This document shows positions 5,854 to 50,085 of a stretch of 64,000 nucleotides of DNA, in pieces. The stretch spans positions 105,152,001-105,216,000 of the forward strand of contig OZ336878.1 in NCBI GenBank assembly GCA_965287045.1, written 5' to 3'. Position 1 is the first letter of the stretch. Each line of letters opens with the position of its first letter. Below the pieces are notes generated by a model. That model did not search any database and was not told where the DNA came from. It saw only the letters and a list, made by a program, of their open reading frames with translations. This DNA is from Carcharhinus amblyrhynchos (taxonomy: Eukaryota). The position numbers and the translations under genes are program-made.

Positions 5854-5877
5854 CTAAGTCGTAGGTAGATGTTTGCA
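5854..5877 (-). CDS. Micro-exon E14 (24 nt, phase 1-1): (V)QTSTYDL
   Basis: Donor AG|GTAAGC; weak acceptor ggatttag. Length and its 759-nt distance from E13 match the fourth exon of the other cassettes. Confidence 0.5.
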   Translation of the reverse strand, partial: CKHLPTT

Positions 5878-6636
5878 CTAAATCCCTGGACCCTACTAAA
5901 CACTGGCACCAGACGAGCAACACAGTCATCTGTGCAATTATACAGTTTTATAATTCATCCGAATTGTTCTACTTCAGGTCAGAATGTTCAGGTGTTCTGG
6001 AGCAGAGAACATCTGGTGCCTGTTTTGAATTTGCTGTTGGAAATCATTAGTCACTAGTTCGTGGAATCTGCAGCTAATTTACATTGTGGATTTGATATCA
6101 GAATAATTTCTGGTAACTCCAGTAATCCAATGTAAGCTCTGGACAATGTTCAACTAATTCTAATCCAACTAACGAAGAAAGTTTTGCCTGCTGCTGTGAT
6201 ATGTGGATATGCAACACAGTACGTTTCTCCTGAATTATTAGTATTGGCAAAATAGACATTCATCTTGGAGATTTCTGGGCTCATTGCCGTTGTCGATTTG
6301 GTTGTAATACGTGTAACATCCGCCAAGATTACTAATTAACCACTCAGCAAGTCTGTGAGTTACCTGGCCACTTACGATAATTGGAAATAATGAATGTCCG
6401 CCTTTTTAACAATGCTCATGAAAGAAATGCGTACTTCAAAGCACACTGTGTTTAGTTGCAGCCTGAATAGCTCGCTCGACACTGGGTCATCAGGAAACTA
6501 CAGTTTCAGCATTGTCTTCTGATTGTTTTTAGCATTTGTGATCAAGTTCTGAATGGGACTTCAATTTTAAAAATAATAACTCACACATGCGAATACGGTC
6601 ACATTGACAACGGCAGATATTAGTGCACTTTCTTAC

Positions 6637-6663
6637 CTGCTTCTTTTTGGCGGATTACGCTTT
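6637..6663 (-). CDS. Micro-exon E13 (27 nt, phase 1-1): (E)SVIRQKEA
   Basis: atatttgcag|AAAGCGTAATCCGCCAAAAAGAAGCAG|gtaaga; ends in KEA like E5. Confidence 0.75.
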
Positions 6664-6714
6664 CTGCAAATATATTTAATAAAGACTGTTACCGATAATG
6701 TGCGAGGTATAAGC

Positions 6715-7660
6715 ATACATAGACATCGAAACACACAATTTGATCTGTCAAGCCCTCTACGAATTATAGTTCGACCATGATTGATCATCCTTTCCATCAC
6801 CATTTTCTGGAATTACCTCCATATCCCTTGATTTCAGTGGTATCCAGAAATCTATAGATTTCCTGACCAATTCTTAAACATTGAGATTCCATAACCACTT
6901 TGGCTGCACATTCCGAAGATTCATGAACCCTTCAGTGAACGCATTCATCCACATTTCAGCCCTAAACTGCTTGCTATCATTTCAAGTTTTTTTTTCCATC
7001 TTCTAATCTGTTAATCGCTTCTAATTACATCGAGTGGACAATTGTCATTAACATTTCAATCATGTCACGCACTGTATGGATTATGCAAGTTTAACGAATA
7101 TCATGTTCCATCCCTCTAGAGTACATTTTCTCTAATCCCATCTCATCACAAAATGACGCCTTTCTAAGGATTCATTTGATGAAATATTGCCAAATCCCCT
7201 TTGTGCAATATAGCAATATATATAGTCACATCAAATAGCTAAAACTGTACAAAGTATTCATGATGCATTCTTTCAAGCACAGAGAAAAAAAAATAACCCA
7301 TTAATGTTCTTACAGAACTGTGAACCACTTGAGTTGAAGGATAACGCACCGAGAGTATTTGTGTGTGTGTTTTTTTTTGCTGTAGTTGTATGCCTACTGT
7401 GAGTCACACATGGACAATGTCACCCTGCTCCCATTGGATTGTAGTCCTTCGCAACGGCGTGGAATTTAAAGTAAAGTCTTACTTTGTCTTTCCTCCAGAA
7501 AACTGGGTGAAATCATGTTTGTTCGCAGAATCTCCCATCTGACATGCTCTGATCCCATGACTTAGATTGTGAAGTTAACATTGATTCTCCATTGCATTGT
7601 TCTTGTATCGTAAATTTCGTACTTTTATCACGAGAAAATATTGAAATAAAACACCTGATA
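6715..7660 (-). mobile_element. Old degenerate CR1 3' fragment
   Basis: Decayed similarity to the 3' UTR and RT C-terminus of the young CR1 copies. Confidence 0.65.
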
Positions 7661-7989
7661 CAACTTTTAAAATAAATCACATTATGTGATGAGCAGCGGG
7701 CCCAAGTGCTGATCCTTGCCGGACAGATATTCATTCTGAGAATGAATAATTTATTACTACTCTGCTTTCTGTCTTTTCAAAGATTCAAAAAAAAATCTCA
7801 CTTCAAACCCATGTTTATTGTGTCAGACGTTCTCAAATTTGAACTCCGTTTCAGAAATCCAATGGTATGTTCAATCAGGCCGCAGGATCAATTTAAGTGA
7901 CACAGTTAAATGCAAAATAAACATTGTTACTTCAACGTTCTAAACATTACGATTTCCTTTATGGAATTCATGAAATTCCGCGTTATAAA

Positions 7990-10700: not shown

Positions 10701-13700
10701 TCCGTAAAAAAAAAATGCACGTGGCCGAGGAAATTAAAATGAAAACAAAAGAAGGATGACCATTGAAGCCATATTTGAATGCGCCACCTTTAGGATAATA
10801 TAAGTGTTTGCAGATGACACTTCAAAGCAAAAAGATTGAACGGATCGATTAACCGATTATTACATTGCTCAAATATCCCCGAGGATACACAATAAAACGT
10901 GTATCGTTTATACTCTTTGCCATATAAATGTTGATAAACTGCAATTAGAAAATATTAAAATCCTGTATCTATCCACTCAATCACATACATTTTGTTTTTT
11001 TTGAATTGGTCTCACATTGGACAGTAGAAAAAAACAGGCGAAGTTTTTGGACGACAATTCTATGCTGTGAGTTGTGTTCGAACTGTTTCACAGGTACAGC
11101 TACTGCGACCAAATACAAATAGGAAACTGCCTTTAGTTTAAAATGAATTACTTGTTCAGTTTCAAGTGATGAGAGATGTTTCAACTGTTCGTAATATGAC
11201 AATGAAGGGCAAGGATGTGTGATTTCTATTGCATCTGAGATTAAAAAACACGTAATATTCCATCTAAAACAATCGAACAGAGGACAAAACGTAACTTCAA
11301 CATTAGACAATTGGTATCAATTGTCATAAATATATTGACGGCTTAACTTCTTGGGGAAGTTTCAGCTAATCGTCGCTCTCCTGGATTGCCGACCAATGCT
11401 CTCTGGTCACATCATGTCAGGCGAAAACAATTGAATTGACAAGGAAATATAATGCCTCATTCTGATCAAAAAGCAGTTGTCGATTGTCTTGAAATTCACG
11501 TACTTTGAGGGCAACGAGTCCTGATTCAGCCAGAGATAGATATTGATACACATGGGTATGAAAATCTAGAAACAGTCCCGTCATGATTAAACATGTCCGT
11601 TTGGGACCACAAGATAGTGTTCATCTAGGGAGACAGGACACTGAGGTTGGAGTGTTTCACCCAATCTGGCCACTGCCTTGTTGTTAAAAATTAGATTCAT
11701 AAAACAATTTCCAATTGAATTGTCAACTTGTTTCGCCTGCATGGAACATTTTTTGCATTTGTCACAACACCGGTTTTATGAAGCAAAACTAGATTTCAAC
11801 CTGCAGCACATTGCCTTGGCAGGCATCGTTTCAAAATTGGTCAAGGAATGATTTTGCTGATTGCCGAAGCTATCGGTGTTATAGTTACTCGAATCTCTTT
11901 AGCACCAAAAAAGAACTCAACGAGCCTTATTTAAGGACAGAAAATTCAAGCCTGGCGCAAAATTTCAAGTTACTTCATTAATTTGATTTGTACCACTGAC
12001 ACATGTTGGTGAATTTGAAAGGCAACAATTGTGTTCATGTTAGCTCTCAGTTTGGAAGGAGTTCTTTAAGGAAGTTGAGCGTTTTTCTGCAACGCCTATT
12101 ACAAATCACTGTTCTGATGATCGGCAAGGGAGTCAATGTTGAAAACAGTCGATGCGTTGCCAAACCAGTTAGCATCCTTCCCTTCCAATGTGTGAAGCTT
12201 CTTGACTGCTGTTAAAGCCACAATCATCCAGAAAATATGCATGCATTGCATTAAAAACGTGTCTTATGCCTTGTAAAAATGGAGAACGTTGTCAATCATC
12301 TACAAGACTGGTGTAGTTAAATTATTGCTCATTTCTTAAACCCCGAGGTGTTGGTAGGAGATGATCAACCATAGAAATAGTTAAGGTCACAGCACACACA
12401 TTTTCTTCATTCCTTCAAATCAGAGATTCTGCGTGTGGCAATCAGTCGGTTATCTTTAAACATTCCTATATCGCTTATGTGCTGGGAATAGAATGATTGG
12501 CTTCGAAAAAACACCCCCATTATATTAATCTTTTTTTTCAATTTTCACAAACAGGCTTTAATGCTATCAACGATCCTGAAGAAATTCAGTTTCAGCACCT
12601 TGAAACAAATTTTGCACGACATTCTTTCTTCGGTAACATTCTTAAATCCACCATATAGTGAGCACTTTGGTGATGAATCTGTGTAGACCGATGGCTCTTG
12701 TACGCATTACGATTGGATTGCTGAGCTTTTGTTAAGCATTGAATACCTGGAAATGTTTCAAATTACCAGGTAGATGCACGTCATTCTTATACTTCGTCAG
12801 ACAGTGGACTGCGTTGAGCAACAATGGACTTTCAGAAAACTACTAGGATTTGTGCCCTTTCTCATGACCTTTACGTCCAATGCATTAACTATGTTTTAGA
12901 TTTCACATGGATAAATGTCATTGAATAAATCAAAACATAACTGGTAATTGTGATGCTGGGGACTTCTCAAATATGATGAGTTGTATTTCCATTTCCTCAT
13001 CCACTGTCCAACCGGTGTTTCTGCAATTGTGACATTGTTCCGTTGATGTCAGGTATCTCAGCAAGCTCCTCTTCCATCTTATCCTAAGCCGCACGTTTTG
13101 CTTGGTGAAGTCAGAATAAATGTGCACATATAGTACCATTTCCAGCCCACTGAGTCCGTGCTGACAAGCCGTTCATTAATAAAGCCAAATATTGAGCTTC
13201 AGAAATTTCTGAAACCTATAAAACACACATGATGTATTGTAAACGTATGAACAATTTCTCCTCACACCCTTTTCTTTGTACGGATGCATATGCAGACCAA
13301 GAGTTCATTGCTAAACTATAAGGATCCGATTTAAATGCCGTCTCATTACACCATGTTGTGTTAACGTGTCCAAAATACTCTGGAGAACATATTAATAAGT
13401 CTGCCTAACAACGATAATAAGATCGTGTGATCATATTTCTGTACCACACTGTTCGATCTTTTTGTTCAATTTTCCAATTTCTGAAAAAAAAACAGAGGAC
13501 GTTTATCCTTATTTCGGCGAATGAACTGAATTTTGTTTCGCATGAAATTCCTACTTTATTGCACCAAATTTCATCTCTGCAATTTCTAAATCATTTTAAT
13601 GAAAAGTTGAAGTTTTCATCTTCTTCTAATAAGAAATAGCCTTGAGCAATTTGCTAATTTTATGAAGAGTACTTCGTGCCTTTTTGCGCCATGTTTTGAT

Positions 13701-15069
13701 GTAAATTTCAACCCTTTTTTTGGAATCATGACGGAATACTTATCAGTGGGACCTGTTGTCGAGAACTATCACTGCCAATACGCCACAGACACAAAATAAT
13801 TACCTAACTTTTTAGTTTTCGCTGATTTTAATGACTAGAACTTCCCCCAGTGCAAATTAAAATGTCTTATCACTGTCTATCGCGAATACATCGTTTTGAT
13901 CGTGTCGCTGCTTGAAAATTGGAAAGACACACCTCGCTGCCCGTGCTACACATATTGGACTTGGTGGTTACTATATATATACGTATATATGTATATATGT
14001 GCATATATTTATATAAAACATTGCTAAATTTACCAATATGTTTGACCAATTTCATGGTCATTCCACCTGCTAACCCTATTAGCCAATGTAACAAAAACTG
14101 TTCTTTCTTTGATATTGGTTAATGTTTGGTTCCTTAAATATATTCGCACTGTCCATGTCAATATTTCAACAGCTAACTTTTTTTGCGGGGGAATATGACA
14201 GCGTGGATAGGATGAAGGTTCAGCTGATCAGAATATGATACATATCGGGAGTTCACATACTTAAAATTATGTGCAAAAGAATCAAATGTGGTACGCAAGT
14301 TTTTTTTCATGCAATGAGGAGTTCTGGTCTGAAAGCACAACTTGGAAATGTGGTGGAGGGGTATCAATCAAGGAATTTAGTAGGGAATTTAATGATTACA
14401 TCAATGGAAACAATGTGTACAGTTGTGGGAATAAGACCACAGGACTGAGCTACGATGCACCTTTAGTTTGACACGATGGAACAAATTATCATAACTGATT
14501 CCATAAGAAATCCATGACTCTATGTTTCTGAAAAAGCAAGCCTAAAATTTTGAAATGGTCGATATTTGATATGTTTTTTATATTTAATTCAATCTATATT
14601 ACTTAAATATATATTTTTGTCGCCTAATTTTACTGTCTTACAAGGTGAATATACATACGTAGCGCAAAGTTGTGGAGAAATCGCCAATAGTTCTTAAATG
14701 CCAGCCTTGGTCTAATGCACGCGGACAAGAAAATCGTTGTTGACCATTATTACCCAGTTCAAACTGCGTGATATATGAATAAAACTCCGTGGAATGCACT
14801 CTGGTTTGAATCTTCCTGATGCTTGTTTTGTATATTCAGCGTCCCCATAATCATCAAGTTTTTTTTTTAATAGTTAAATTGCTCTTCAGTTAAGAAAATG
14901 TATTTGAAAAATAGGGTGGTACAGTGCCATAATGCGTACCTCTGTGTTGCCACTCGAAACATTGTGCAACAGTGCGTCATTCATTTGCTAATAAGTTCAA
15001 TGGAACAACATTGCCCCTGTTGAGTCCTAAGACTGACACAATTACACATAGATATTCAAACTAATTTAC

Positions 15070-15096
15070 CAACGTCTTTTGCAAGCATCTGTCTCA
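15070..15096 (-). CDS. Micro-exon E12 (27 nt, phase 1-1): (M)RQMLAKDV
   Basis: ccctcttacag|TGAGACAGATGCTTGCAAAAGACGTTG|gtaaat; paralogous to E4 and E8 (all start TGAGACA). Confidence 0.85.
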
Positions 15097-15419
15097 CTGT
15101 AAGAGGGATCAAAGTATCAGAACATTAATTATCAGGAGATGATAGTTGTAGGAGCATACGGCTTCAAGAACAATAATGATTCTTCAATAATACTTTCGCA
15201 TGGAAAAATGCATAATATTAAGCTAATAATCATTTTGCAAATGCATAAGAATACATGTTTACGTATTTTTCTTTAATTCCAATCACTGACACGCCTGGAA
15301 TAACCCAATGGTACGAAATACCAATTCATGTTTCGAGATGCAAGTGTAACGCTGCAAAATAGTGCTCGCTGGTGCTTCACCATGTTGAACGCAAGTGGCA
15401 GATATTCGTCATCTGTAGT

Positions 15420-15552
15420 AACTGTGACCCTATTATATCCAAACATATTATTAATAGAGGAATGATTCTAAGTAATATTCTCGAGAAACAAAAATGTTAC
15501 TTAAAGTCATTCTTCTGTTAATAATATGTTTGGATACGATAGGGGCACAGTT
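15420..15552. repeat. Long inverted repeat/hairpin (60-bp arms, 13-nt loop), MITE-like
   Basis: 15420-15479 is the reverse complement of 15493-15552 at 52 of 60 positions by my count. Confidence 0.9.
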
Positions 15553-20250: not shown

Positions 20251-20626
20251 GATATTCCTCTTCATTCTTTCGGGTAAAATTAAATTCTGATCATTCCCCA
20301 AATCCAAAAGTTTTAATTCAACCACCCACTCCAAATGCCATTCTCTGTATCAAGAAACACATCAGGAACTGAAACAGCGATCTCTTGCAAATTAATCCCT
20401 TTTGAAACTAGGCAAATACAGTGCCTGAATAAAAGCACCGGTTCGTGAACACACAATGTAATTGAATTCATTAATCCCATGAAATAATTACGGTACTTAA
20501 TCCAGATAATAATTCGCACAGTTTATTACGAATCTGAGCCCAACCCAAGGGATTTTATGAAACAAGAGCCGAGGCCAGCATTTTTTTTTCTAATTGGGAT
20601 AATGGAGAGAATTGATCGCTATATTA

Positions 20627-30858: not shown

Positions 30859-31077
30859 GGCAAACTAGTTCTCGACGGACAGGAGCAGAAACATATTGCG
30901 GTGCGCAAACGACTGATAGCTACGTACTTTAGCGAAAGCGGAGTCACAGAAATACCCTGCCTTTGAAGTTGGGTTTACATTAATTAAAGTAAAACAAATT
31001 CCCTTATGCATTACGTAGTTTGAACTCATAATTCATGAAGTATTGTCCAATGGTTAGTATTGTACTATCTTACTTAC

Positions 31078-31104
31078 TGCTCATTTGAAGAAGCTTTTTG
31101 CACT
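31078..31104 (-). CDS. Micro-exon E11 (27 nt, phase 1-1): (E)CKKLLQMS
   Basis: tttttcttctcattag|AGTGCAAAAAGCTTCTTCAAATGAGCA|gtaagt; paralog of E7 and E3 with synonymous differences in this frame. Confidence 0.88.
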
Positions 31105-33182
31105 CTAATGAGAAGAAAAATCTTACATAAGAAAATGTCACGATAAGCAATTAAAGACGATTTGAAGGATCCAGCGTTTAAGTTATAATGCCTAGCTTAT
31201 AATAAATAAAAACGTGATACGAGCAAATTTTTTAATTAACCAAAATTAAATATTCTCAGGCATCATTATTTTATGTGTTATATATTTCGAAATTTGCATA
31301 ATTTGCAAAGTGCTTCTGAAGAATGCGAAATGTCTCTGTGCTTTTGCGAAGGAACAGCATGCAATTGCATATTCTATCCAGATGATATCCTTAACCTGAT
31401 GATCCTAACGCACAACTTGTGTTAAATTTCTTAAGGTTCCTGAAGATTCTTCCATCCGGAGTTTTTTTTTTGACGTATGAACAGAAATCAAATAAATGTT
31501 AAATTAGGTGGCAAATAGCAATTAAGTCTTAATGGGTATTTGAATCTCAACACGAATGCTGTGAGTAACATAGTTTTCGTGGGAAATTGACTGATAGTAG
31601 TTGGCAGGAAATTGGAGTAGTGATCACAATTTAACCGAATTGCACACCAGTTTTGAAGGTCATATGTAATTAAAGTGCTGCAATTTGTTGAGATCTAAGT
31701 CTTAAACGATTTTCTGCAAGGAAGGATTTTTTTTTTTGTATTACGTCCTCAGGAATGGATTAGTAATATAGAAGGGCGAGGTAAAATGCACTTCTTCCGG
31801 AGTTGTCTTCCTGATCCTATGGCAAATCGGCAGTGTTTCAAATTCCACCAGCAGCCATCAAGGCAAAAGATCCTGAAATTTAGCATCAATCCCAACGTGA
31901 TATCATTACATATTCGTTGATACAAATTTCATGCAGAGTTTCTGCCACGCCGGCTCCGTCAGTGTCCTCCCGCTCCTTCTAATGTTTGTGACGATATGTG
32001 TAGTGCACGTATGTTCGTCCTGTAGTTTCGTATTTGCATGCTGATTGTCGAGACTCCAGTTTATTTTCATCACAACGCTCATCAGAAATATTTCCTGCTT
32101 TGCCATGCGTACTGGTGTTGCTGAAGTGTTCATATGTTAGCAGTTAATCTGTGTTACCGCATTATTACCATCAAATCAATGGGATTTAGATCAGGAGTTC
32201 CAGGCCTAAAGGTTAGCAGAACAAAGCTGCAATAGAAGACTTCCACAGCAAATACGCGAAAGGCCCTTTTCAGTTAGTTTGCAAAAGAATCGCGAAATTT
32301 ACCCAGTAAGTAAGGATGAACATAAAGTAAAAAAAAAATTGAGTGGCACGTGGGTTTCCATTGGAACCTAATTCGGCGAGAGAATCAGCGGACAGAGTTG
32401 AAATTAAAGGGCCGACTCAAATTACCTCTATCTTAAGTCAAAAAAAAAGTGTTAAAGTAATATGGCGCCATTTAGGAATGAGTGCAAAGCCTATCTGGCA
32501 ACGACAAGGCAATCTGTTCTTATTAATTATGCGAGAAAGTTTACATGGTGTAATTCTAAATAAAAGTTGAACTGATAACAAGAAATAACTCAAAATCAGT
32601 ATGGATTTGATAACAGGAAATTATGTGTGAATTGCTTCATTGAAATCCCTTTTGGTTGTTTAACAGTGACTTCACGTGGTATTCGGTTACTTTCCCCAGT
32701 TAAATCAGCACGTTTCGATGTCATCTGAAATATGCCAATGCCTAAAGTTGATTCCGAAAGTGTGGGACCGTTTTTCATTTATGGATGTGTATTCGTGTCT
32801 CGCTTGACTCTCCTGGAATCGACGAGTATGTAGCACGCCCACCGTCACCCTTCCAGAATTATCAGCAGAGAGCTGAAGGAGGGAGCCTACAGTGTAAACC
32901 GGCGTTGCTGAAACTGCACCTACATCTGTACTGGGATCGATTGTGTGTAGTTTATCTATCCTGCAATAAATCACCGCTGTGATTAGTCGCCGTCTCGATG
33001 TGAAACTTTGTCCTTCAGTAAAGAGTATTCAAGGACATGCGGAACATGTCTATAATGGGGTTTCAATAATGCAGCTGAAATTATGGCATTATTATAAAAT
33101 TCTCCGTTTAATTATGGTATATTATATTTTTTCTCTACGTCATCATCCCTTATGCCTGACATGAATACATGGACATACGTAC

Positions 33183-33212
33183 CTATGAATTCTTCTTGCT
33201 GTGTGCCTGCGA
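33183..33212 (-). CDS. Micro-exon E10 (30 nt (I)AGTQQEEFI, or 24 nt 33183-33206 (S)TQQEEFI)
   Basis: ttttcttacgttctag|TCGCAG|GCACACAGCAAGAAGAATTCATAG|gtacgt; two in-frame acceptors; same gtacgta donor as E6. Confidence 0.78.
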   Translation of the reverse strand, partial: SQAHSKKNS

Positions 33213-33515
33213 CTAGAACGTAAGAAAATCATGAGAAAAATAAAAACAAAACATGCAGAACATTTTTCCCCCGATCAATGTAACTATATGAAAAATGTAA
33301 GCAAAAAGATGTTCCCTATAGCAATTAGTAAACACGTCAGTCCAACAATAATGCCTTTAGAATAGTGAATATCACAAAGTCAACAACATCTCCTTGGCAA
33401 CCTGTTTGGTGCTCTTCCACGCAAGTTAACATTCCCATAATAGTAATTCATACATCGTATTCTTTGAAAATACGTTTCCTAAACCCACAATGAAACTGGA
33501 AAATCTGCGACTTAC

Positions 33516-33542
33516 TTGTAACTTGTTCTTTGGATAGTTTTT
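33516..33542 (-). CDS. Micro-exon E9 (27 nt, phase 1-1): (E)KLSKEQVT
   Basis: ttttctcttatatctacag|AAAAACTATCCAAAGAACAAGTTACAA|gtaagt. Confidence 0.8.
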
Positions 33543-34149
33543 CTGTAGATATAAGAGAAAATCAGAAGTTTGCCGAGAACAATGTGACAACAGAACATTA
33601 ATCTGTACTGACGAGTTTACCAATTTTTAGTGACACCCTTATTCACGATGTTGTCAGAATGAACATTGTGCATAAGGTTGGTTGCCAAGGAAAACAATAC
33701 GACTTGGAAAGATTGCATAAATTGTCTTCATTCAAACTATCAAACACATTTCGTCTTAAAATATTGCCAGTAAGATTAGTGCAGCTCTGCGTATTGATGT
33801 TCATTAAAGCAGCAACATATGTTTTGTTCAGGCAGCAAACACGCAAATTGACTGTTCGCGAATGTAATTTGCTAATGCAGATAAGTGAAGGTTTCCTAGG
33901 GTTAAGGAGTATACTGCAGATAAATGTTAAAGGCGAACTAAGCAAGTTAATGTTGGAAAATCAAAAAATATCAAGATAAATTTCAGAAAAAAAAGTATAT
34001 ATTTTTCAGTTAACAAATCTCACCAGCGTCCGACAATTTTGTTTTCAGGCTCATAATTTCTTAAAAACAAAGTCAGTATGCATATCACATGTTAGAAACT
34101 GTGAAGGAGGTTTGCGTGTTCTGACATGAAAACAACAAAATAAAAGAAA

Positions 34150-34302
34150 ATGTTAGCAGGTCTGACAGCATTTGTGGAGAGTGAGGCTGCGTCAATATTT
34201 CATGATTCATATTTTATAGGGCGCATCGGAAGTAGTTAAATAAGAACACAAGGTGTTTAATATATTTTTGTCTCAACAGATGCTACTAAACCTGCTAACG
34301 TT
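34150..34302. mobile_element. Inverted-repeat (MITE/Penelope-like) remnant
   Basis: gttagcaggtctgacagcatttgtggaga pairs with tctcaacagatgctactaaacctgctaac; the arm resembles the element at 25830. Confidence 0.65.
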
Positions 34303-34879
34303 TTACAATGCTTTCTGTTTTAAACAAAGAGAAAAGTTGTGCCACTGTTCAATGATTTTGAGATACATTAATCCTGTAGTGGTCGTTATAAAACTTTCAT
34401 GAAATTTTCATTCATTTGAAGAGTCCAAACTTCCGCTTGGAAATAATCATTTTATTAATTTATAGAAAAAAATATTCGGAATAAAACGTCAAGCTGTTGT
34501 TTTTCAACATAACATTATCCTGAACGAAAATAAAATAGAGTTCATCAACTTTGCTGCTTACATTATTGTTCACTTATTCTAGAACGCAAACATTTAACAC
34601 CAACAAAATACGCATATCATGGCTTGTTGCAAACCGATTTTGAATTTTGTTGCATAATCAATGCAACAGTTCAATTATGAATGCAAAAATTGAAATGTAG
34701 CATATATTTCACATTTAAAGCAACTTAATAACCGTCCATGTACTAAATTTACTTTTCGATGTTTTGAGCAGGTGTAAAAGAACGTGTTTATGTTCCAGTT
34801 TCTGCACATGCATAATATTGCACTGCACTATGCTTGCAGCTAAATTTATTTAAGCTGAATTCCCGTTTATATTAATTAA

Positions 34880-35835
34880 TTTGTAAAAAAAACTTCTGCA
34901 CCTTTATTGGACAAAAATTACACTATTGAACCTCTTAAAATTTATCAGATCATGACCAAAAATGTTGTTGGACAATGAGAGAGATAGATAGTGGTAAGTC
35001 TGTGTGTTCGAAAAATAGAGTGATGACAATCTTTCACTGCGAGAGAGTATGTTTGCATGGTAAAAAGTGCATGAAGACTGGACAGAAATATTTAGGTTAA
35101 TTGAACGGAAACATACCTGTCAAAATATGTTACAAGTCAGAGAATGCGAAATTGCCTATTTTCAGGAAGAATCGGCATAAGCACAGCATCAAATAAGTGA
35201 GAAATTTCAGATCTCGAAAGGCAGAATGACCTGCTTAACCCAATACATTAAATGCAATTACAGTGCCAGTAGAGCACGTATTTAGGAAAGCTTAAGCAAT
35301 ATTATCGGCTTTTTCTGAGTAGCACTGAAAATAGAAGTAGAGCGAATGAGCTTCAATGGTTCAGGTGGTCAATGGGAACCATTTTGGATGACAACATATT
35401 GTGCATGGTCACGTTATTTAATGAAGGATATAAAAACCGTGGAAGCAATTCACCGATGTTTTATCGTCTTATTAGGAAAGGAGGGACACGCTCGCCTTCA
35501 ATCTGTCGGTGACCATCATAAAATAAGTGAACTGACTGGGTATATAAGTTTCTGAGTCGTCTAGATAAGGTGCAGTTAAAACAGATTTTTCCATTTATGG
35601 GGTAATCTAGAATTAAGATCCGTAGTTCGTCATTTAAAAAAAAACAGATGAATCGTTCGTTTCTTTCTCGCAAGTTGTCATGAGATTTGCTTCAACTGTT
35701 CCTGAAAAGATGATGCAAATAGACCTTTGAAAAAGATTACTCCTGGTAGAGTGAACAGAGCTGTGGTAAGCAAGGTGTGTTTAGATTATCGTTGTTACCC
35801 GATTTGAATACAGGACCGAATACAAGGCTTGAATA
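34880..35835 (+). mobile_element. Old degenerate CR1 3' fragment
   Basis: YCAWSRYLMKDIKTVEAIHRCF (ORF 35346-35555) aligns with the CR1 RT C-terminus. Confidence 0.7.
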
Positions 35836-35977
35836 CCGACTTCAGGGTAGGATCAAAACAGCTACGCCCGGATCAAACTGGAGGGTCTGCCGGTCCTTCT
35901 GCTGCCGACCTTCCCGCTTCTTTATTGCAAGCTGTGAGCTTAGCTGATTGCAATAGACGCGTGTGGAGATTACATAC

Positions 35978-36004
35978 CAGAATCTTTTTGCAATAATTGT
36001 CTCA
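35978..36004 (-). CDS. Micro-exon E8 (27 nt, phase 1-1): (M)RQLLQKDS
   Basis: ctttgattttcag|TGAGACAATTATTGCAAAAAGATTCTG|gtatgt. Confidence 0.88.
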
Positions 36005-36901
36005 CTGAAAATCAAAGGGGCAAACAGTTTATTTGTTTCCACACGTTGTCATGCATTTTATTTTACAAACTTTAATTGACACTGTAACATCAAACCAAGT
36101 AGAATAGATTAGTTGTACACAGACGAGCTCTCTCATTGCGGTCAAAGGCTGGACGCCGACTCAATGGTTAGCATTGAAGGCTCTTGCGCTAGGGGCTCCA
36201 GCTTCAATTCAGGCCGTATGTGGAAATTATATATGCTGCCCGTGCCTGCCTGGGTTTCCAACGTACATGGATATGATGTCCTGACAGAGAATCAATGCGA
36301 ACACGATGGACAGAAGGGAGTATTCCTACTCTATTCATCTGCAGAAGGTCAGCTGCGCCCAGCAATACTACTTTCCGTTGAACTGAGCTGCTTGATGACA
36401 ATTTCAGAGTTCTTAGTTCAGTTTGTACTCTTTACAGTGAACATCTCTTTCAGTCAACATGATGTGTGTTTCTTTGAAACAACTCCTGCAAAGAGCAATC
36501 ACTTTTATGTTTCAATTCCACAGCAATTGATATTTTTGAGGCATCATAAAAGAAAAATTGGCACTGAAACAGGATATCGTTTATCTCATGTGAATACCAA
36601 GAAAATTTCAAGAACACCAAGAAATACCAAGAAAAAACTAGGACAAATCGTTCTGGGCCCTCAAACGTCGAATATTAGAATGCTGGGGAGAAGGGGTAAG
36701 TGAGATAAACGTTGAGGTGCCAGCGAGGGAAGACCACAGAAGGAAACAATTCTTTGTGAGTTTAGAAATAGGGTTTATTTTTATTTAGATAAACGTGAGA
36801 CTTTAGACATTGATTTGCATATATGAAAGGCAGAAATGTTTGATGTGCTTCAAGGGTAATTTTAAAAAATCATAAATCCAGCCAATGGTCTGCAGGTTGA
36901 C

Positions 36902-36972
<71 letters not shown>

Positions 36973-36975
36973 CAG
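36902..36975. repeat. (AGAT)n microsatellite
   Basis: About 17 tandem AGAT units. Confidence 0.97.

Positions 36976-37722: not shown

Positions 37723-37724
<2 letters not shown>

Positions 37725-37756
<32 letters not shown>
37725..37756. repeat. (TA)n microsatellite
   Basis: About 16 TA units. Confidence 0.97.
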
Positions 37757-37759
<3 letters not shown>

Positions 37760-40810: not shown

Positions 40811-40836
40811 AATGAGCATTGCACGTCATTACTTAC

Positions 40837-40863
40837 TGGTCGATTGAAGCAGTTTTCTGCATT
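40837..40863 (-). CDS. Micro-exon E7 (27 nt, phase 1-1): (E)CRKLLQST
   Basis: ttattattttccattag|AATGCAGAAAACTGCTTCAATCGACCA|gtaagt. Confidence 0.88.
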
Positions 40864-42149
40864 CTAATGGAAAATAATAAGAAACATTGCAGTCAGTAAC
40901 TAAAACCTCATAACGGATCAAACAATGAAATTACAATGCACGAAAATCATTAACTGAAACATGACATGGGAGGGAAATGTTTAATGCATTGCAATACACT
41001 GTTATTTTTTGGCAGTTACATATTTCAATATTAGCCTAATTTGTAAATTGATTTTTTTTTGGCGGGGGGGGGGGGGGTGGTGGGGGGCGTGCGTTGCAAG
41101 ATGCCGATGTGTCTTTCGTATGGAAGCACATTATACCACGTAACCAACAGATAGTCTCCTGAGATCGGAAGATCCTCGACGTGCAACTTGTGTCAAATTG
41201 CGGAAACAGAATTGCCTGATTCTGTCCACATACATTAGAAATTTGAGGGTGTTGAAAAATGTGTGGAAGAGGGAGCAATTGACGAATGCACACACAACAG
41301 TTCTACCGGCGAGGGAAAACGCGATGCTCATGACAGTCCGATAAATGTTTTCCGCCAGGCTAAATAATTCAAATATCTCTCCCTCACCTGAGAAGGATCT
41401 GTAATGTTGTGGAAGGATCGATGTTTAAGTACATGTTGTAGGCTGGAGGTACAGACCTGATGGCAGTGATATCAATTTATTTCCATCATTTGGCTCACTA
41501 GGAACTTCTTCCGTGATAAATGTTTGCAATTGGAGTAAAATGCGCTACACGTTGATGCATGGATGCTAAATTGTTGCCATCAAATCCACAGGAATACAAA
41601 ACTTGAACTCGAGGCTCAGAGGCAATTCTGGCGCATGCGTGGTGCATTTTCAGAGAGGATGGATAATTTAAATTTGTTGAAACGTGATTTTGTCTTTCAA
41701 GGTTATAATCAGACACTGTTTTCCATGTCAATAATTGAATGATTAGTGGTTTGGCAAGAGGACATCATTTGGATAGAGAGTACACACATTACTATAATGA
41801 GAAAACAAGCAACAACAACCTCCTAAATTAAAGATGAAGACACACACGCACAAAATTAAAATATATCACATGGCAACATTTCGCATTTTCAACTCTTGGC
41901 AGGCAATCGACAACGAATCGTACAAAGACATGACAATCTCTGGTGGTCAACGCTGTGGGTAACGCAGCCCTGTATAATTTTGAATCAATTCAACTGCTAA
42001 TGAGCACTACGTTAAAGTGAGTTGAAATTTGGTGAAGATACATCATAAGCGAATAACGTCCTTGAAATGTTCTTATTTGCAGAGCAGAAGCACGGTTCAT
42101 CATTACATAGAAAGATAGAGCATATAAAATAGCAGCAAGAAAAGTAGCG

Positions 42150-44700
42150 TTCCCCGCCAATTGCAGACAACCCATGGGAGGCTGCACGAAAAACCATTAT
42201 GACACTGGCTAATTATGGAACTCTGCAACTTGCCCCCGCGTTCCCTCCCATATCCTTTGAAGTCTTTATACCTAATAGTAAAATCTAACTATTGATTGAA
42301 AACAAGCAAAGCCTTGGTCTCAAATGCGTTAGGGCAATCCATAGGCTTACCACTCCCTCCGTAAAGCATTTGTTCCTCCTCTCAACTGCAACCACCTTGC
42401 GTGTCTTTCTACCAAAGTGATTAAGCACTCGTTTTTTTTTAACTGCAAACTGCTACTTCTGCAACACATTTCCTCACTCGCTCAAAGTGTTCCAATCGCA
42501 CTGAAAAATCTCTGCATCCTTCTGCCTATTTACTCTCCTATTCAGCTTCGTGTCATTTGTGAACTTGGAGATACTACATTCAGTTTCCTCATCGAAAGCA
42601 TTAGAAAACAATACATTTTACATTGCTGCAAGGCTGCCATTGATCACTGTGGTGTCCCACTATTTCCTGTCTGCATTTTTTAAAGTGCCGTTCCCCATGT
42701 AAATCCAACAGCCCTAACCTCATGAAGTTTAATTTTCCACGCTAATTTCCAAAGTTCATTTTCTTTTTTAGAGATTCTTCTAAAATCCAAATGTATTATT
42801 TCCACACGTTGCTCCAAATCAACTCTACTCGTTAAGTGGTCGAAACATTCTCGTGGTTTCTCAAGCGTAATAATATTGCTTTCATAATTCCGTACTAACT
42901 CTTTCCGATTGTCCCATCATTTTCCAAGACTTCTGCTTTGAAATACTTCGTATTAGACCCCAGCATTTTCGCAACCAATCCCCACCAACCGACACCAGGA
43001 TCACTGGCCTATCATTTCCTTTTCCCGCTCTACGTGCGGTTTTAAACTATTGTTACAACAGCTGCTTTCAAATCCAAATGAACTTGCAGAACCGATATAA
43101 CGTTTGGAAGATAAACACCAACGCATCCAACTTCTTTTTCAGTGCCCAGTCCTTGTGGTCTCTGGGATATAGATTATCAGTTCGTGGGGATTTATTGCCC
43201 TACAATTCCATTAATTTCCCCAAGGCATCGTTCTTTTTTTTACCTGAATGACTCTGATCTTCACTGCTTCCATTTTACTAAACCATGCATTCCCACATAT
43301 CTGGTACGTTGTTCTGTGCGCTCATGTTTGATGACAAACGAATGCACGTATTAAGTTAGTTAGCCATTTCCTTGTTCCAACGTTGTCAGTTTATATGCTT
43401 CTGACTGTAAGGGGACTACATTTCTTCACAAATCTTTTCTTTTTACTTATGTGTAGATATGTTTGCAGTCAGCTTTGATCTTTGATTCCGTGCAAGCATA
43501 CTCTCATATGCAAATATGCACACACCCCCAACATACGAAACCCGCTCCACCCCCTCCTTCCACTCCCCGCATTCTTAAGCACTCTATTTGTCATTTTCTG
43601 CTGAATTCTAAACAGGTCTCCACTTTGGCTCTGGCCATGTTGCACGTCTCTTCTCGAGTCTTATGTCTGATACTGTCCCTAATTTCCCTCGTAATACATT
43701 GTTTGTCAATTCTTCCCTTCCGATTTTTGAACCAATCAAGAAACACCATTTGTTGCAGTTTTTAATCAAGCACTATTTGAATTCTTGCCATTTCCTGTCG
43801 AGCCCCATTCCTTGAAGTAGCGTTCCCCGGCCAATTGCAGACAATTCGGAACTCACAACACTGTACTTTACGTTGTTTAGATTTCGGATCCCTGTCTCAG
43901 AATCAATTACATCGCCTTCCGTCTTGATGACGAATTCTATCATATTATGTTTGCTCATCTCCGACGGTTTTTACTCAACGAGAATGTCAATTGTGCCTAC
44001 TTAATGTCCCAATGCACTGTCTCGAATGGTGTGCACTCTTATTGGTTCCTCAATGCCGTGATTCAGAAAATTATCTCATGCACACCCTAAGAAACTCTCC
44101 GCAGGTATTGTGACGATCTTGATTATTCCAATCTATATTCAGATTGCAATCGCCCATAATTGCAAATGTTTCTTTGTCTCATCCATCTGCAGTTTTCTGT
44201 ATAACGTCATTCTCAACATCACCATTACATTTTGGTTGTCGACAGATAAAATCCGCTAAGCTCTTTGGTGCTTAGCTCAGCTCTACCAGCAAATTGCCTA
44301 CCAATACTATTAATGCCTTCCCTACTCTTCCATTAATTTCCCCCCTTTTTTTCCAGCAATGCAGCTCCACCATGTTTTCATATTTTTTCACCAGTGCTTC
44401 TTTAATACGGTAAACTCTTGAGTTTCCATTTCCCAGTCCGGGAATAGTCACCCTGTAGTCTTGTTCCCATGAACTTGATTGTGTCATAACCGTTTTTTTG
44501 TCAATTGTGGATGAAATAAATGTACAATATTGCGAATATTCTCTGTATGAAGAAGCAAAGTACCTTTAACCTTATCTGTCTCATTCCTCTTTTTTTTTGT
44601 TACTGTGAATCTAGTTAGCTCCTGGATCTTCATACGTCTGCCTATCATTTTTCTTTCTCTCGTTTCTCGATTTGGCTCTCATCATTGCTGCCCCCATCCT
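42150..44700 (-). mobile_element. Old degenerate CR1 LINE (endonuclease-RT remnants)
   Basis: Decayed RT motifs and endonuclease-like ORF 44272-44487 (WEQDYRVTIPG...ALVKK). Confidence 0.65.
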
Positions 44701-45134
44701 TGCAGAGTTTGCCTTCCCACTGCCTGTAATTTTGAAGCCTCCACAACCATTCTCTACCTGAATCCCCTGAGCACATCCGTCCTTGCCCTTCAGTGGTGCA
44801 AGGCAAACTCTATGCAGACGTCCTACCTCTTCATATCCGCCCCAATCATCCACAAATCTGAGGTCTTCCCCTTCTTCAGTATCCTTCCAGACACAGATTG
44901 ATCTCGTTTGTGTGTGTTTTTGGGACATCTGAATTTTTAATGTTTATAAGTAATCATAGTGATACAAAGAAGATTAATCAAGACGTCGAATATTTCGATG
45001 AACAAGATGAATATGATTTCATTATACACTAAGTTATAAATATGAAACAATTATATCTCGATATATTCTAATATCGTCACTGCGCATTCCACGGGTGCCT
45101 ACATTGAAACAAAAAGAAGAATGCAATTACGTAC

Positions 45135-45158
45135 CAATCAAGTGATTGAGTTGACCAG
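45135..45158 (-). CDS. Micro-exon E6 (24 nt, phase 1-1): (A)GQLNHLI
   Basis: atttctcgttacag|CTGGTCAACTCAATCACTTGATTG|gtacgt; found at the position and length predicted from the cassette pattern. Confidence 0.8.
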
Positions 45159-45873
45159 CTGTAACGAGAAATTAATTTTATCAGTGCATGGCAGGTAAGG
45201 TGCATCTTACATGTAAGATGCGTGCTGCATCGATAGATAGAGATCAATTTAATAAATGATAATAGAGACGCTGTGTTGTAGCAAATAACAAATGTGCCAA
45301 TTCTGCAGGAGTGCCATTTTAGAAATGTGTATCTCACAAAGGTAAACCAAAGCGAACCATCCCACTCAGCTATTTGCCTCGCTACACAACTTTGAACTAA
45401 TTGGATCTCATAATACATATACTTTGCAAACTATTTCCCAAAGTTCACAGTGAAAATGCACAATTTGTACGTTATCTGACGATTTCCTGCTGGAATCTAT
45501 AGAGGTAAGTTTCATTTGTCAAGAAACAAATCAGCACTCGTTAGCTAGTCTTTGCATAGATTACTGTTTTCAAATATGTAAATGAGAGATTTATTTATAT
45601 GTCAGCAATGTTTGCTGGAAGTTTCAGAAGTTTTCTAAAAAAAAGTGATTTTGTTAACAAATAAAATGAACATGCCGAATATTTTTTGATTAAAAAAAAG
45701 GCGTACATTCAAACAGAATGAAAAATCCATATTCCTGACAGCTCCAAAAACATCATCAGCACATGGAATGGTCATAAACATTGGGGCGAACTGAGAGAAT
45801 GCAGCGGTGGAGAAAACACGAGATGTCAACAGAAATGTGTGACAAGCAAATATGTCAAAATAGAGAATCTTAC

Positions 45874-45903
45874 CAGCTTCCTTCAACTTTGCCTGTAGGG
45901 TTA
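45874..45903 (-). CDS. Micro-exon E5 (30 nt, phase 1-1): (V)TLQAKLKEA (alternative 36-nt acceptor to 45909)
   Basis: tttgttttcaagacatag|TAACCCTACAGGCAAAGTTGAAGGAAGCTG|gtaaga; the acceptor is ambiguous between two in-frame AGs. Confidence 0.7.
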
Positions 45904-46724
45904 CTATGTCTTGAAAACAAATTCAATAGGCACGTTATAATGGGTGGTTGTATTCTCTTCGAAACAGCTAACTCATAATTCAACGACAATTACAAGTCAG
46001 TGTTCGGTGGTTCTACGATACTTTAAGTCATAACTTAATGGCTCTCCTATTGAGAAATTGGGATTATCGCAAAGATCGCTTCTCAATCTACCTTGACAGT
46101 TTCCACGTGCGTTTACATGACAATTATCCATAAGGCATAACGTCCCATGACCATTGGGTTAGAATGGGATTCATCAGCTAACGTAAATGAAAAGGATAAC
46201 TTTGTATGGTCCTGAGAGTTAGAGATCATGAGCGCACAGGAAATTTTAGAATGGAAAATAAAATCTTCTCACTTAAATTCAACTAATTAATTACAGACCT
46301 AGGCCAGTGAGACACGAGAAACGTCAAACACCTTGAAGTCTTCGGCGGGAGTTTGTTAATCAATTTGATGCAACCAAACATAAATGCCACCAACAAACGT
46401 AGGAAATCAGATTTTCCCGAACTGACCACCAAACTCAACCCTTCCCCACAATGATCGGACCTGGCCGGCGCTGGCCGTGATGCAACACCACCGAGACACA
46501 TCCAACACGTCGCATCCTGTGCCCGAAGCAGGGCAAGACCCCGCCAGAACAGGCCCGACATGACTGAGGTAACCTACTCCATGCTTCAAATGAGCCAAAA
46601 CGACAACACCCACGACCGGAGCCAACATCAGCCTTACCCAACAGCCCTCCCTCCACCGCCCCCCCCCCCCCCCCCCCACCGCCTCCCTGCCAACCCCGCT
46701 GCCGCCATTACCCAATTCTGAACA

Positions 46725-47040
46725 AGAACATAACAACTAGAAGCGAGGGTAGGACATTTGGCATCTTGAGCATATTCCGCCATTCAATGACATCATGGCC
46801 GAATTATCATGGACCGAGCTTCACTCACCCACCCGCTCACCACATCACCTAATTCCTTTATTGTTCAAAGGTATCTTTATTTTTGCCTGAGAAACATTCA
46901 AAAAGGTTACCTCTACTGTTGAACTGGGCAGGGGATACCACAACCTACCTGCCTCTATCTTATCTAGCCCCTTCAAAATGTTACATTAATCCATAACATT
47001 CCCCCATGCTTCTAAATTCCACTGACAATAATCGCAATCT
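46725..47040 (-). mobile_element. Degenerate CR1 3' end
   Basis: aagaacataacaactagaagcgagggtaggacatttggc...ccgccattcaat tail and UTR homologous to the young copies. Confidence 0.8.
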
Positions 47041-47384
47041 ACGCAGCCGACTGATACCATTTAAGGCTGACTGTACGTGCACCCTGTCCCAACATCTCAT
47101 TCACTTAGCTTTGAAATTTGTCTTCTCCCGTTCAATAGCTCATTTAATGTTAGCTGCGTAATTGCTGATTGTGCAGTAAAATGACAGGTACCGCCTCTTT
47201 GCGTATGTATGTGTTTCACTGAGGGAGATTCTGAAATATTTCACTACCTCAGTCTCACTCGCCAATTGTGACAAATTTTAGGCATACAGGATGTCAGAAT
47301 TCCAATCGGATGTCAGTCGCTAACTAATGACAATTTGCTGCTCATTGTCGCCCCAATGAAGTTACAAATCCGTCGGTCGTTGGC

Positions 47385-47900
47385 AAAAAATGGACCATTC
47401 AACTGATCGAGTCTGTTCTGCCATGAATGAAATCATGACTGATCTGAAATTCCACGAAAACATGTTTCCACTTTTTTCCAAAACCATGATTTTCCACTGA
47501 TATAAAATCTGTATATCACATTTTTCACCACACATCTCATCCACCATAACCTTAAATGGTAAGTCATTCCATGATGCATGACCTTGCTACAAGAAAGTCC
47601 TTCATCCTGCCTTAAATGGCCGACTATATACCCCGAGATTATGCCTTCCGACCCTCGGATAATGGGGAAACCAATGATCAGGACTCTTCCTGTCAAGCCT
47701 CCAAGAAACTATATGCATATCAATAGAGTAATCTCTCATTCTTTTGAACTTCAATGTTAAAAGGTCCAAACTGCTAAGCCTGCTCTCAGAAGAAAATGCC
47801 TCCAATCTAGGCATCAACATAGGGAACCTTTTTTTGTATTGCCTTCAATACCACTATATGTATCTTTAGAGAAGCGGCCTAAAACATTTCACAATATCAC
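47385..47900 (-). mobile_element. Degenerate CR1 3' fragment
   Basis: ORF 47602-47820 (LMPRLEAFSSESRLSSLDLLTLKFKRMRD). Confidence 0.8.
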
Positions 47901-48372
47901 GTAATATGTTCGATGTTGGTAGAAATGAAAATTGTGTCTAGGCTGCACTGTATGCAATCTGTGCTTGACTATTAAGCTTTCCCAAAATGTGCGTTCTACA
48001 AAAATACGTGTTACAATCCCAGAAATATTGGCAACGCAAGCACTTCTTTACTCAAAGAATGGAAAACCTTTGGAGTACCTAAAACAAAAGGGTGCAGGAT
48101 GGACAAAGCACAATCCATCATTATACTACAATTTAATGTAGTAGTGACACAACAAGGAACAACAAAAAAAAAATCATTGGAATAAGATTGTGGTCCCTCC
48201 AAAATTCGGCAGGTCATGGTGACATCAGTAAAATAAAAAAAAAGCCTGAGCGTATACCTTTATTCTGTCACTTTTAATGCACCCTTCCAGATGCCTGTCT
48301 AATATGGCTAATATCCCTCCTTTCGTCAGCTGTGAGCTTTGCTGCGTATGTACACATTTGCAGATCACATAC

Positions 48373-48399
48373 CCGCATCTCTCAGGAGAAGGTGTCTCA
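48373..48399 (-). CDS. Micro-exon E4 (27 nt, phase 1-1): (M)RHLLLRDA
   Basis: ttgcttcccttttag|TGAGACACCTTCTCCTGAGAGATGCGG|gtatgt. Confidence 0.88.
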
Positions 48400-50055
48400 C
48401 TAAAAGGGAAGCAAATAACACACAGTGCCAATTTTGTTTCCGAACATTGACATGTTTAAAAATTTGACGGAATATCACTTAAAAACGCATATAGCCGTTT
48501 GCATATCGAATTATAAGGCAAAATTCAACTATTCCAAAAAAGAAGCTAATTTCTCCTGGTGAATATGATTATCTGCAATTCAACTTGTTTACAGTTCTAC
48601 AAGGCAAACATTTCCATAGAAAGTTTATATCTTATCAAAATAACTACCATTCTGATCAGGATTAGCTACGATTAATAATGCAAATCTTATCCAGGGTGAA
48701 ATATGTATACAATAGTAATATTCATGATTCTCGGTTACATGAACAACTGGACTATTCACTGTTGGTCGTGTTGAATTAATTTTTGACATCCTGCATTACG
48801 TATGATTCTACTGAACTTTGCTTTGTATCATCTCGGATCCGAGTGTGGGGAAGACAATATGCATAATTGTGCACAACTAATTCGTCCAATCGGTCGTTCG
48901 CTCAAAATTAATTGATGCGATCATCATTTTTCATGATCAGCACTACAATTATTTGTACAGTTCACTTAATGTCACATCTATTCATTAGAAAGATGCTGCA
49001 GATGTTTCTATTTGCAACCATCATCTAGTTCGAGCAGTCTTCTCTCATTGCATTCATTGATTTAAACAAAAACGGGTCCTTCGCCTTTGTTTTGGTTGCC
49101 AGCTGTTCCTCGCAGTCTTAAAGTGGTGACAAGCTTTATTTTCGTTTCCTTTAGTTCTTGATTACTGCACTGGTTCTTGAGCTAAATAACTCTCCTATTA
49201 ATTATGTAGCTTGTGATCACGTCCATTGCATTTGGCACCGGCGCCGTAATTATTTTGCCTATTGCACTTTTCACTTAAGTTGGATTTAGGCGCGCGTCAA
49301 CTTGAGTGGCGACAGCCATATGGCGGTGCATGTGCAAAGATGAGAGGGTGAAATTTTTCAGTGTATATTCCATGCATAATTTAGCGTTGGCCATTTATTG
49401 ACCATTTCAGTGAAGTTACCGTCCAATATCAACTGGTGGACTGAGAAAGCGCTTTAACTTCGTGTCCACGGGCTCTCGAAGATATTCAGCGCCACAGATC
49501 CCCTCCTTCCCCAAATTTTGCTTCTATCCTACCATCTTATCCCAGTCCCTCGGGCCACATTTTTTTCCCAAGCTGAGATTGCCACATTGCAGGGACCACA
49601 GAAATGTTGGTAAATTAGATTGGCACACCATTGTTTCAGGTGGGCCGTCCCATCGAAGAAATGGTGGAAGTAGTCTGGAGGAATTTCTGCCTCCATTTAC
49701 TTAACATTCGAAGGAGCACCAATTAGCTGATTTGCAGCAAACAGAGGTTGTTTTTTTTTCCGTCAACCATTCAAACGATGGTGTAGGCGTCCCGCCAAAA
49801 TCACTGACCCATTTAAACAAAATTTCCTAAAATAACCATTAATTCGATTGACTTGATATCTGAACCTGCGCTTTGCGATTACTTTTTTTTAATTATTCCA
49901 ATTTATTTCAAACTTTGGTTGATGACTGATATTTTTCGAATAGTGCAGATCACGATTCAATTAGAAGTGCATAATTTTTCATTGCAAACTGTGCCAATAC
50001 TCTCAATCTTTAAATGGAAACATGAGACAATATATGACTCTCTGATGGGACTTAC

Positions 50056-50085
50056 TTGTTTTTTGGAGAAGTGTTCTGCATTCAT
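50056..50085 (-). CDS. Micro-exon E3 (30 nt, phase 1-1): (N)ECRTLLQKT
   Basis: acatttttag|ATGAATGCAGAACACTTCTCCAAAAAACAA|gtaagt; paralog of E7 and E11. Confidence 0.85.

Follow-up and report, generated by a model that had tools for sequence, protein, structure and literature searches.

We have analysed a 64,000-nucleotide (nt) stretch of the Carcharhinus amblyrhynchos genome (2.92 Gb), C9:105,152,001-105,216,000, where C9 is contig OZ336878.1; this whole stretch is referred to below as the window. The window contains a series of very short putative exons, located on the minus strand like every exon that we discuss from the C9 array. An earlier note on this DNA had proposed that a gene in the window grew by tandem triplication of a four-exon cassette, A-B-C-D. 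Our observations uphold tandem growth by multi-exon blocks and identify the window's A and B candidates as true paralogous phase-1 exons, but indicate that the cassette present three times is A-B-X, in which X is a predicted exon of 36 nt that begins at window positions 45909, 34059 and 13480.

All 13 of the coordinates listed in the earlier note coincide with GT donors on the minus strand, and the A motif, the B motif with its TGAGACA start, and the common splice flanks (cattag/gtaagtaa for A2 and A3, gtacgta for D1 and D2, gtatgt for B1 and B2) were observed as described. The A copies are identical to each other at 18–20 of 27 positions and the B copies at 16–17 of 27, relative to a background mean of 9.7 (standard deviation 2.9) among 49 27-mers of the array. 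The earlier note had allowed that such pairs might be matched in shuffled sequence, or that A and B might belong to a dispersed repeat family. On the minus strand (18 candidates), 4 pairs of AG/GT-bounded 27-mers had at least 16 of 27 identities, and on the plus strand (14 candidates) there were none; 300 shuffles produced no such pair in 285 cases, one in 15, and never more than one. In genome-wide searches, 9 of 9 matches to an A pattern and 11 of 11 matches to a B pattern fell on the minus strand of C9 at 104.09-106.42 Mb, and the reversed patterns that served as controls matched 1 and 0 times, respectively; two further exon patterns gave 6 of 6 and 2 of 2 matches on the same strand and in the same region. 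Copies across chromosomes and on both strands, as in a dispersed repeat family, were not seen in these searches, all A and B matches lying in one 2.3-Mb region. Because the A and B patterns were derived from known copies, the searches test the distribution of these exons and not their divergence.

Divergence between paralogs also fixes the reading frame, as had been claimed. In the paralog pairs of the window, 42 of 74 third codon positions differ, relative to 18 of 74 first and 21 of 74 second positions. The proportions of synonymous (pS) and nonsynonymous (pN) differences in phase 1 were 0.69 and 0.30; phase 0 introduced stops in 7 of 8 pairs, and phase 2 gave no synonymous excess (pS 0.31, pN 0.40). 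We scanned 814 kb, comprising the window and its flanks from 100 kb downstream to 650 kb upstream, both for splice signals with no composition term (splice-only) and with a model that learned composition from the minus strand. The 27-nt candidates from the splice-only scan were stop-free in phase 1 in 35 of 35 cases and in 18 of 35 in each other phase, and a 15-exon model of the window (426 nt) was free of stops in phase 1, with 18 and 7 in the other two frames. These observations support a phase-1 coding frame under purifying selection.

Paralogs of X1, which had been listed as the first of three C exons, were found at two further places (X2 and X3, Table 1), so that the thrice-repeated unit is A-B-X. 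The former C exons do not constitute one paralogous group, their identities of 8, 8 and 13 of 27 being at the background level. Among the former D exons, D1 and D2 are linked through their introns; the D pairs are identical at only 4–10 of 24 positions and the others are unlinked. D3 has a purine-rich acceptor (score -3.2), lies ~25 nt from a truncated long interspersed nuclear element (LINE) and failed the exon scan. The exon list of the earlier note was also incomplete, as X2, X3 and the exon ending at 2708 had been overlooked, and of its three C-D intron lengths, 715 and 759 nt (the latter from the coordinates) are correct and ~305 nt was measured as 309 nt.

The A-B-X cassette is not peculiar to the window, putative copies having been located at 4 further places. 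The same order was read at C9 104.094 Mb; at 104.425 Mb B-X was read and its A is a pattern match; and A-B-X occurs twice more ~300–330 kb upstream of the window, where one A is a weaker match. The B matches span the entire 104.09-106.42 Mb region. As the genome-wide A and B patterns had no match on C16, where arrays of similar 36-nt exons are described below, the cassette appears to be specific to C9.

The earlier note had reported no intron similarity by eye. However, masked blastn of the window against itself yielded five collinear hits (130–262 nt, 59–65% identity, E 1e-9 to 5e-5) that pair the segment 48454-40815 with 36053-31056, and two additional short off-diagonal hits (E 0.03–0.09). 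The alignment of A2 with A3 extends over 262 nt, of which ~190 nt is intron. When 210 intron-flank pairs were ranked, X1/X2, B1/B2, A2/A3 and D1/D2 took four of the first five places. The other place went to A3 paired with the 2734 exon, probably through a chance likeness of their pyrimidine tracts. The flanks of A1/A2, A1/A3, B2/B3 and B1/B3 were no more alike than background. Intron and flank similarity is limited to pairs within B-X-Y-D-A, where Y is the exon formerly listed as the second C, which indicates that the most recent step added a copy of B-X-Y-D-A to an earlier arrangement of two cassettes. These comparisons support a history in which the three cassettes were reached in two steps, an older duplication and then that of B-X-Y-D-A, and they place the putative breakpoints of the younger duplication within an A-B intron. 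It fits this order that B3 matches remote B copies of the locus (up to 21–22 of 27) better than it matches B1 or B2 (16–17 of 27). As judged from the unit alignment, the upstream copy of Y is a dead relic that lost its donor after the duplication.

Table 1. Predicted exons and duplicated units in the window (positions are those of the window; identities are nucleotides identical per length compared)
Feature	Position	Strand	Length (nt)	Remarks
Leading 24-nt candidate (leading D of the earlier note)	51151..51174	-	24	Phase 1; splice scores 3.4+4.1; plausible exon; 4-9/24 to other D, no sequence paralog of D1/D2
A1	50056..50085	-	30	A class plus one extra codon; 18-20/27 to A2, A3
B1	48373..48399	-	27	First exon of upstream copy of younger duplication; flanks align with B2
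X1 (former first C)	45874..45909	-	36	23/36 to X2; top intron-flank pair of 210; alternative in-frame acceptor at 45903 gives 30 nt
Dead Y copy	45476..45496	-		Acceptor retained, ~6 nt shorter, GT donor lost; from unit alignment
D1	45135..45158	-	24	gtacgt donor; upstream intron 59% identical to that of D2 over 191 nt
A2	40837..40863	-	27	Last exon of upstream copy of younger duplication
B2	35978..36004	-	27	B motif; flanks align with B1
X2	34024..34059	-	36	True paralog of X1; overlooked earlier
Y (former second C)	33516..33542	-	27	Separate class; strong splice sites; 8/27 to X1; unit-1 counterpart dead
D2	33183..33206	-	24	Intron similarity to D1
A3	31078..31104	-	27	A motif; paralog of A1, A2
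B3	15070..15096	-	27	Closest to B copies elsewhere in the locus
X3	13445..13480	-	36	Weak donor; located by similarity to X2; overlooked earlier
27-nt exon (former third C)	6637..6663	-	27	Different module, downstream of cassettes; 8 and 13/27 to other former C exons
Former D3	5854..5877	-	24	Unsupported, probably not an exon
27-nt exon outside the earlier note	2708..2734	-	27	One paralog 303 kb upstream (pattern search)
Younger unit B-X-(Y)-D-A, upstream copy	40815..48454	-		Five collinear masked blastn hits to 31056-36053
Younger unit B-X-Y-D-A, downstream copy	31056..36053	-		Masked blastn hits to 40815-48454

The start of X3 resembles the X exons that follow B at C9 104.09 and 104.42 Mb, and the 6637 exon precedes the 2734 exon in the same way as, further upstream, the 306926 exon precedes the 305568 exon. 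A 27-nt candidate at 54609-54635 (minus strand) has the first 7 nt and the gtacgt donor of D1, but it was left unassigned, as its proline-rich peptide does not fit and it has no flank homology.

Exon candidates of the same kind were observed well beyond the window. In the 814 kb, the splice-only scan returned 35 candidates of 27 nt on the minus strand and 4 on the plus strand, and 18 and 5, respectively, of 36 nt. The composition-trained scan returned 121 minus-strand and 5 plus-strand donors of exon candidates at scores of at least 8, a difference that is inflated relative to the splice-only counts because the model was trained on the minus strand. Of 88 high-scoring exons, 49 are 27 nt in length, 28 are 36 nt and 4 are 21 nt. 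Similar candidates continue at C9 106.42-106.49 Mb, and no convincing microexon candidate was found between 106.498 and 106.568 Mb. On the downstream side, the last candidates lie 27 kb beyond the window and are followed by 73 kb without any; a candidate terminal exon located ~17.6 kb beyond the end of the window was rejected because further microexon candidates occur at 19.3 and 27.3 kb. The same exon classes reappear at C9 104.0-104.9 Mb. A looser 36-nt pattern gave 72 matches genome-wide (control, 31), located on the minus strand of C9 at 104.3-105.8 Mb (8 matches), on the minus strand of C16 at 60.5-64.1 Mb (18, from 60.52 to 64.12 Mb), on the plus strand of C16 at 66.2-66.3 Mb (4, from 66.21 to 66.33 Mb), and scattered elsewhere (42). 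All 22 of the clustered C16 matches are stop-free and, as examined by eye, carry Leu, Ile or Val at that position of the heptad on which the pattern placed no constraint. The two C16 arrays point away from each other, and their 5' ends are expected within the 2 Mb between them; an Ig C2-set cluster neighbours them at C16 68.0-69.3 Mb.

Some local features of the C9 array and its surroundings were also recorded. Between 106.425 and 106.443 Mb a 36-nt exon, or a relic of it, is present in five near-identical copies whose upstream introns are also similar, indicative of a much younger local amplification, and a module of 21/36/27/27-nt exons is repeated three to four times at window-relative positions 463,000-510,000. 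The upper array is bordered at each end by a zone of old and degraded LINE sequence, one of them with weak integrase and env Pfam hits (segments L018-L019), and an 85-nt candidate at 106.470 Mb, which has no paralog in the region read, is likely a LINE remnant. Repeat-like intronic sequence contains an importin-alpha C-terminal fragment (segment L012:808-900, minus strand; Pfam Arm_3, E 6e-10) that is probably a captured processed fragment, and directly after a LINE reverse-transcriptase frame there is a fragment that we take to be cytochrome c1-like and a likely processed copy (segment L097:5477-5965, plus strand). A gene with an RRM domain (Pfam RRM_1) lies on the plus strand at C9 106.518-106.534 Mb, head-to-head with the array; from its sequence we presume it to be RBM4-like, and as such it provides a synteny anchor for an ortholog search. 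Further away, a single VJ-type exon at C9 110.471 Mb has what we take to be a resemblance to NKp30, and the interval C9 96-112 Mb is rich in B30.2 exons among the matches listed. Location of the locus in the major histocompatibility complex was considered; the available portions of PMC10751288 and PMC12227049 contain no mention of RBM4 or butyrophilin.

Exons start with AA in 57 of 91 cases and end with G in 70 of 91, so that Glu is encoded at the junctions, and the gain or loss of any block would leave the frame intact. In the 28 36-nt exons, the hydrophobic fraction is 0.75 at codon 2, 0.82 at codon 5, and 0.50 and 0.61 at codons 8 and 9, a heptad-like arrangement. The 88 exons joined in order encode 860 amino acids with no stop and with balanced charge (195 Lys plus Arg, 186 Asp plus Glu), and their hydrophobic period of 3.6–3.65 was matched by only 4–5 of 200 shuffles of exon order. 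N-glycosylation sequons are not enriched (4, relative to 2.9±1.6). We infer that the product would be a long coiled-coil rod, probably intracellular.

Searches for exons of other kinds gave largely negative results. Pfam searches of sets of open reading frames (ORFs; 79, 124, 100, 149, 21 and 119 ORFs, filtered by length and repeats and mostly from the minus strand) detected only retroelement domains, the importin-alpha fragment, the neighbouring RRM and sub-threshold noise, with no Ig or other domain exon, and an all-against-all comparison of 6,753 minus-strand ORFs gave transposon matches only, with no longer paralogous exon in the region read. None of the 65 genome matches to the V exon of the shark's own butyrophilin (BTN) and none of the 35 matches to an IgC domain (C2-set_3) fell in C9 103-109 Mb, although a very diverged V domain could escape such a search; genome-wide V-set and SPRY matches, at least 150 each, were not decisive for the C9 locus. 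With three local B30.2 (PRY-SPRY) exons as queries, tblastn detected nothing in the 814 kb, including its 100 kb downstream, and Pfam was likewise blank. In ~0.92 Mb (the 814 kb and the 5' end), the search for transmembrane (TM) exons with a phase-1 donor gave no convincing case, the 15 minus-strand and 23 plus-strand candidates being mostly microsatellites. The 21-nt unit of chicken BG genes was not in excess in the splice-only counts (7 on the minus strand, 11 on the plus strand). One sequence run that we compared consisted of genomic contigs, covered the introns at ~2% difference, and was uninformative on splicing.

We consider it likely that the window represents part of the 3' side of a huge protein-coding locus that consists almost wholly of symmetric phase-1 microexons, mostly of 27 and 36 nt, which would encode a coiled-coil rod like that of the BG tail. 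According to this proposal, the length of every exon would be divisible by three and its junctions would divide the same codon (usually G/AA, giving Glu), so that exons or blocks could be gained, lost or skipped without a frameshift, and unequal crossing-over among such frame-neutral blocks could freely lengthen and reshuffle the array. After splicing, the array would encode an extended, charged rod of alpha-helical coiled coil that probably dimerizes and has a length tuned by exon number; by analogy with the microexon-built tail of chicken BG, this product would most likely serve as an intracellular spacer or cytoskeletal adaptor. Several points weigh against this interpretation. The hydrophobic period peaks at 3.6–3.65 and not at 3.5, the value at 3.5 having been matched by 30 of 200 shuffles; the periodicity excess is modest and the exon list behind it incomplete; and many exons end in Asp, Ser or Thr, which could interrupt a continuous coil. 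The strand difference in the composition-trained scan is inflated, as noted above. A start codon, a signal peptide and a convincing terminal exon were not identified in the parts read, and domain exons could reside at 105.87-106.42 Mb (~550 kb of the upper array) or in nearly all of 104.0-105.05 Mb, which are outside the scanned sequence. Splicing, exon order in the mRNA and gene boundaries are predictions from sequence, and the cellular location and partner of the product are guesses by analogy.

The alternatives account for parts of these observations. One gene with a triplicated A-B-C-D cassette and no remaining intron similarity, as first proposed, would explain the three ordered occurrences of A and B and their common flanks, and D1 and D2 are indeed true duplicates; we regard it as highly improbable, because the C exons are unrelated (8, 8 and 13 of 27), D3 is unsupported, X was overlooked twice, and the introns define a B-to-A unit that was copied once. 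Scarcely more probable is the idea that the arrays consist of pseudogenes in decay or of words that look like spliced exons by chance, to which the dead copy of Y, the weakness of several donors and our knowledge of the exons from sequence alone lend some credence: the splice-only 27-mers are stop-free in one phase in 35 of 35 cases, exons are 60–95% identical where introns are at most 65% identical or not alignable at all, and pS is more than twice pN. A more substantial alternative, though still an unlikely one, is that the exons form expanded cytoplasmic tails of BTN/BG membrane proteins, the IgV and TM exons of which lie in unscanned parts or are too diverged for detection. BG tails consist of 13–36 phase-1 coiled-coil microexons, according to the available text of PMC4046983 and PMC5938342; the shark's own BTN gene on C53 has a 27-nt phase-1 AA...G exon between its TM and B30.2 exons; and, besides the B30.2-rich interval described above for C9, there is a BTN V exon at 102.66 Mb. 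Yet BTN V and C2-set_3 matches are absent from C9 103-109 Mb, there is no B30.2 within 100 kb downstream and no convincing phase-1-donor TM exon in the ~0.92 Mb scanned, and the exons are mainly of 27 and 36 nt rather than 21 nt. On IgV, IgC, B30.2 and exon size, the predicted array does not conform to BG/BTN membership, while its run of symmetric phase-1 microexons predicted to encode a coiled coil is a BG-like feature.

The microexon locus itself could be organized in more than one way. It is possible, though we lean away from it, that one gene of more than 1.3 Mb, with ~200 coding microexons, makes up the whole upper array (C9 105.12-106.49 Mb). The array maintains one strand and one phase, no internal first, last or domain exon was recognised in the 814 kb, the 5' end is bounded by the RBM4-like gene at 106.518 Mb, and old LINE zones are present at both ends. 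Against a single gene, whole modules recur (A-B-X, and a block of 27/27/27/36/27/27 nt) as paralogous genes would give, exon-free gaps of tens of kb could conceal gene ends, and the C16 arrays, being on both strands, require that at least several genes exist. Several tandem paralogous genes are more likely than one gene. As a tentative extension that we hold with some reserve, the arrays may represent an undescribed vertebrate gene family composed almost solely of coding microexons, with several hundred 9- or 12-codon phase-1 exons over ~2.5 Mb of C9 and ~4 Mb of C16, no globular domain, at least one transcription unit longer than 1 Mb, and a rod of more than 1,000 residues with its length set by exon duplication and skipping.

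Cassette duplication is itself an ordinary mechanism, and the surprise here is one of scale, megabases being devoted to a family with only 18–36-nt visible coding exons; exons this small easily escape homology-based annotation. The array would offer a test case for how splicing copes with many constitutive microexons in succession that are separated by kilobase introns, and for the evolution of coiled-coil length by turnover of exon blocks, the birth, duplication and death of which are all represented within the window. If it proved to be related to BG/BTN tails, the array would also bear on their origin in early jawed vertebrates.

We found no account of such a microexon array in a literature search that included few subscription papers and no supplements, and automated annotations of related genomes may already model an array gene. 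TSBP1/C6orf10, which is likened here by description only, is MHC-linked, has many tiny exons and is not known to have an Ig domain; it differs in its N-terminal hydrophobic segment, and is not known to have a comparable coiled-coil pattern. The micro-exon genes (MEGs) of schistosomes, as described in the available text of PMC8293314, consist mainly of symmetric exons of 36 nt or less that can be skipped in frame, and in the 814 kb the coding sequence likewise consists mainly of symmetric exons of at most 36 nt. However, MEGs are restricted to schistosomes and encode secreted or membrane proteins with signal peptides and raised dN/dS (PMC8293314, same text), whereas the C9 array is in a vertebrate, is of megabase scale, appears to be under purifying selection and is predicted to encode a charged helical rod; the two would be analogous only, and unrelated.

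The shark's own BTN gene has the 27-nt phase-1 AA...G exon form in common with the C9 array, but contains a single such exon candidate amid real domains, whereas microexons are the whole visible coding sequence on C9. That exon is a possible source of the array exons, the common form being no proof of descent; the available text of PMC12841164 indicates that heptad number varies across vertebrate BTNs. The closest likeness is to chicken BG, the tail of which is encoded by 13–36 phase-1 exons of 21 nt (also 18 or 24 nt) in the accessible part of PMC4046983, and by microexons with a split first codon and a predicted coiled coil in that of PMC5938342, where a BG-like zipper protein is reported to regulate actin-myosin interaction. 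As in the C9 array, a coiled coil is constructed from many symmetric phase-1 split-codon microexons, exon number varies by duplication, and the genes form a multigene cluster (PMC4046983, PMC5938342, in the same portions). Unlike the C9 array, where the parts read yielded neither an IgV nor a TM exon, BG genes have signal, IgV and TM exons, and the C9 exons are mainly of 27 and 36 nt, with more than 100 candidates in 0.8 Mb and kilobase introns. Our best reading, by analogy, is that the array family works like the chicken BG tails, and we claim this likeness of operation rather than BG identity.

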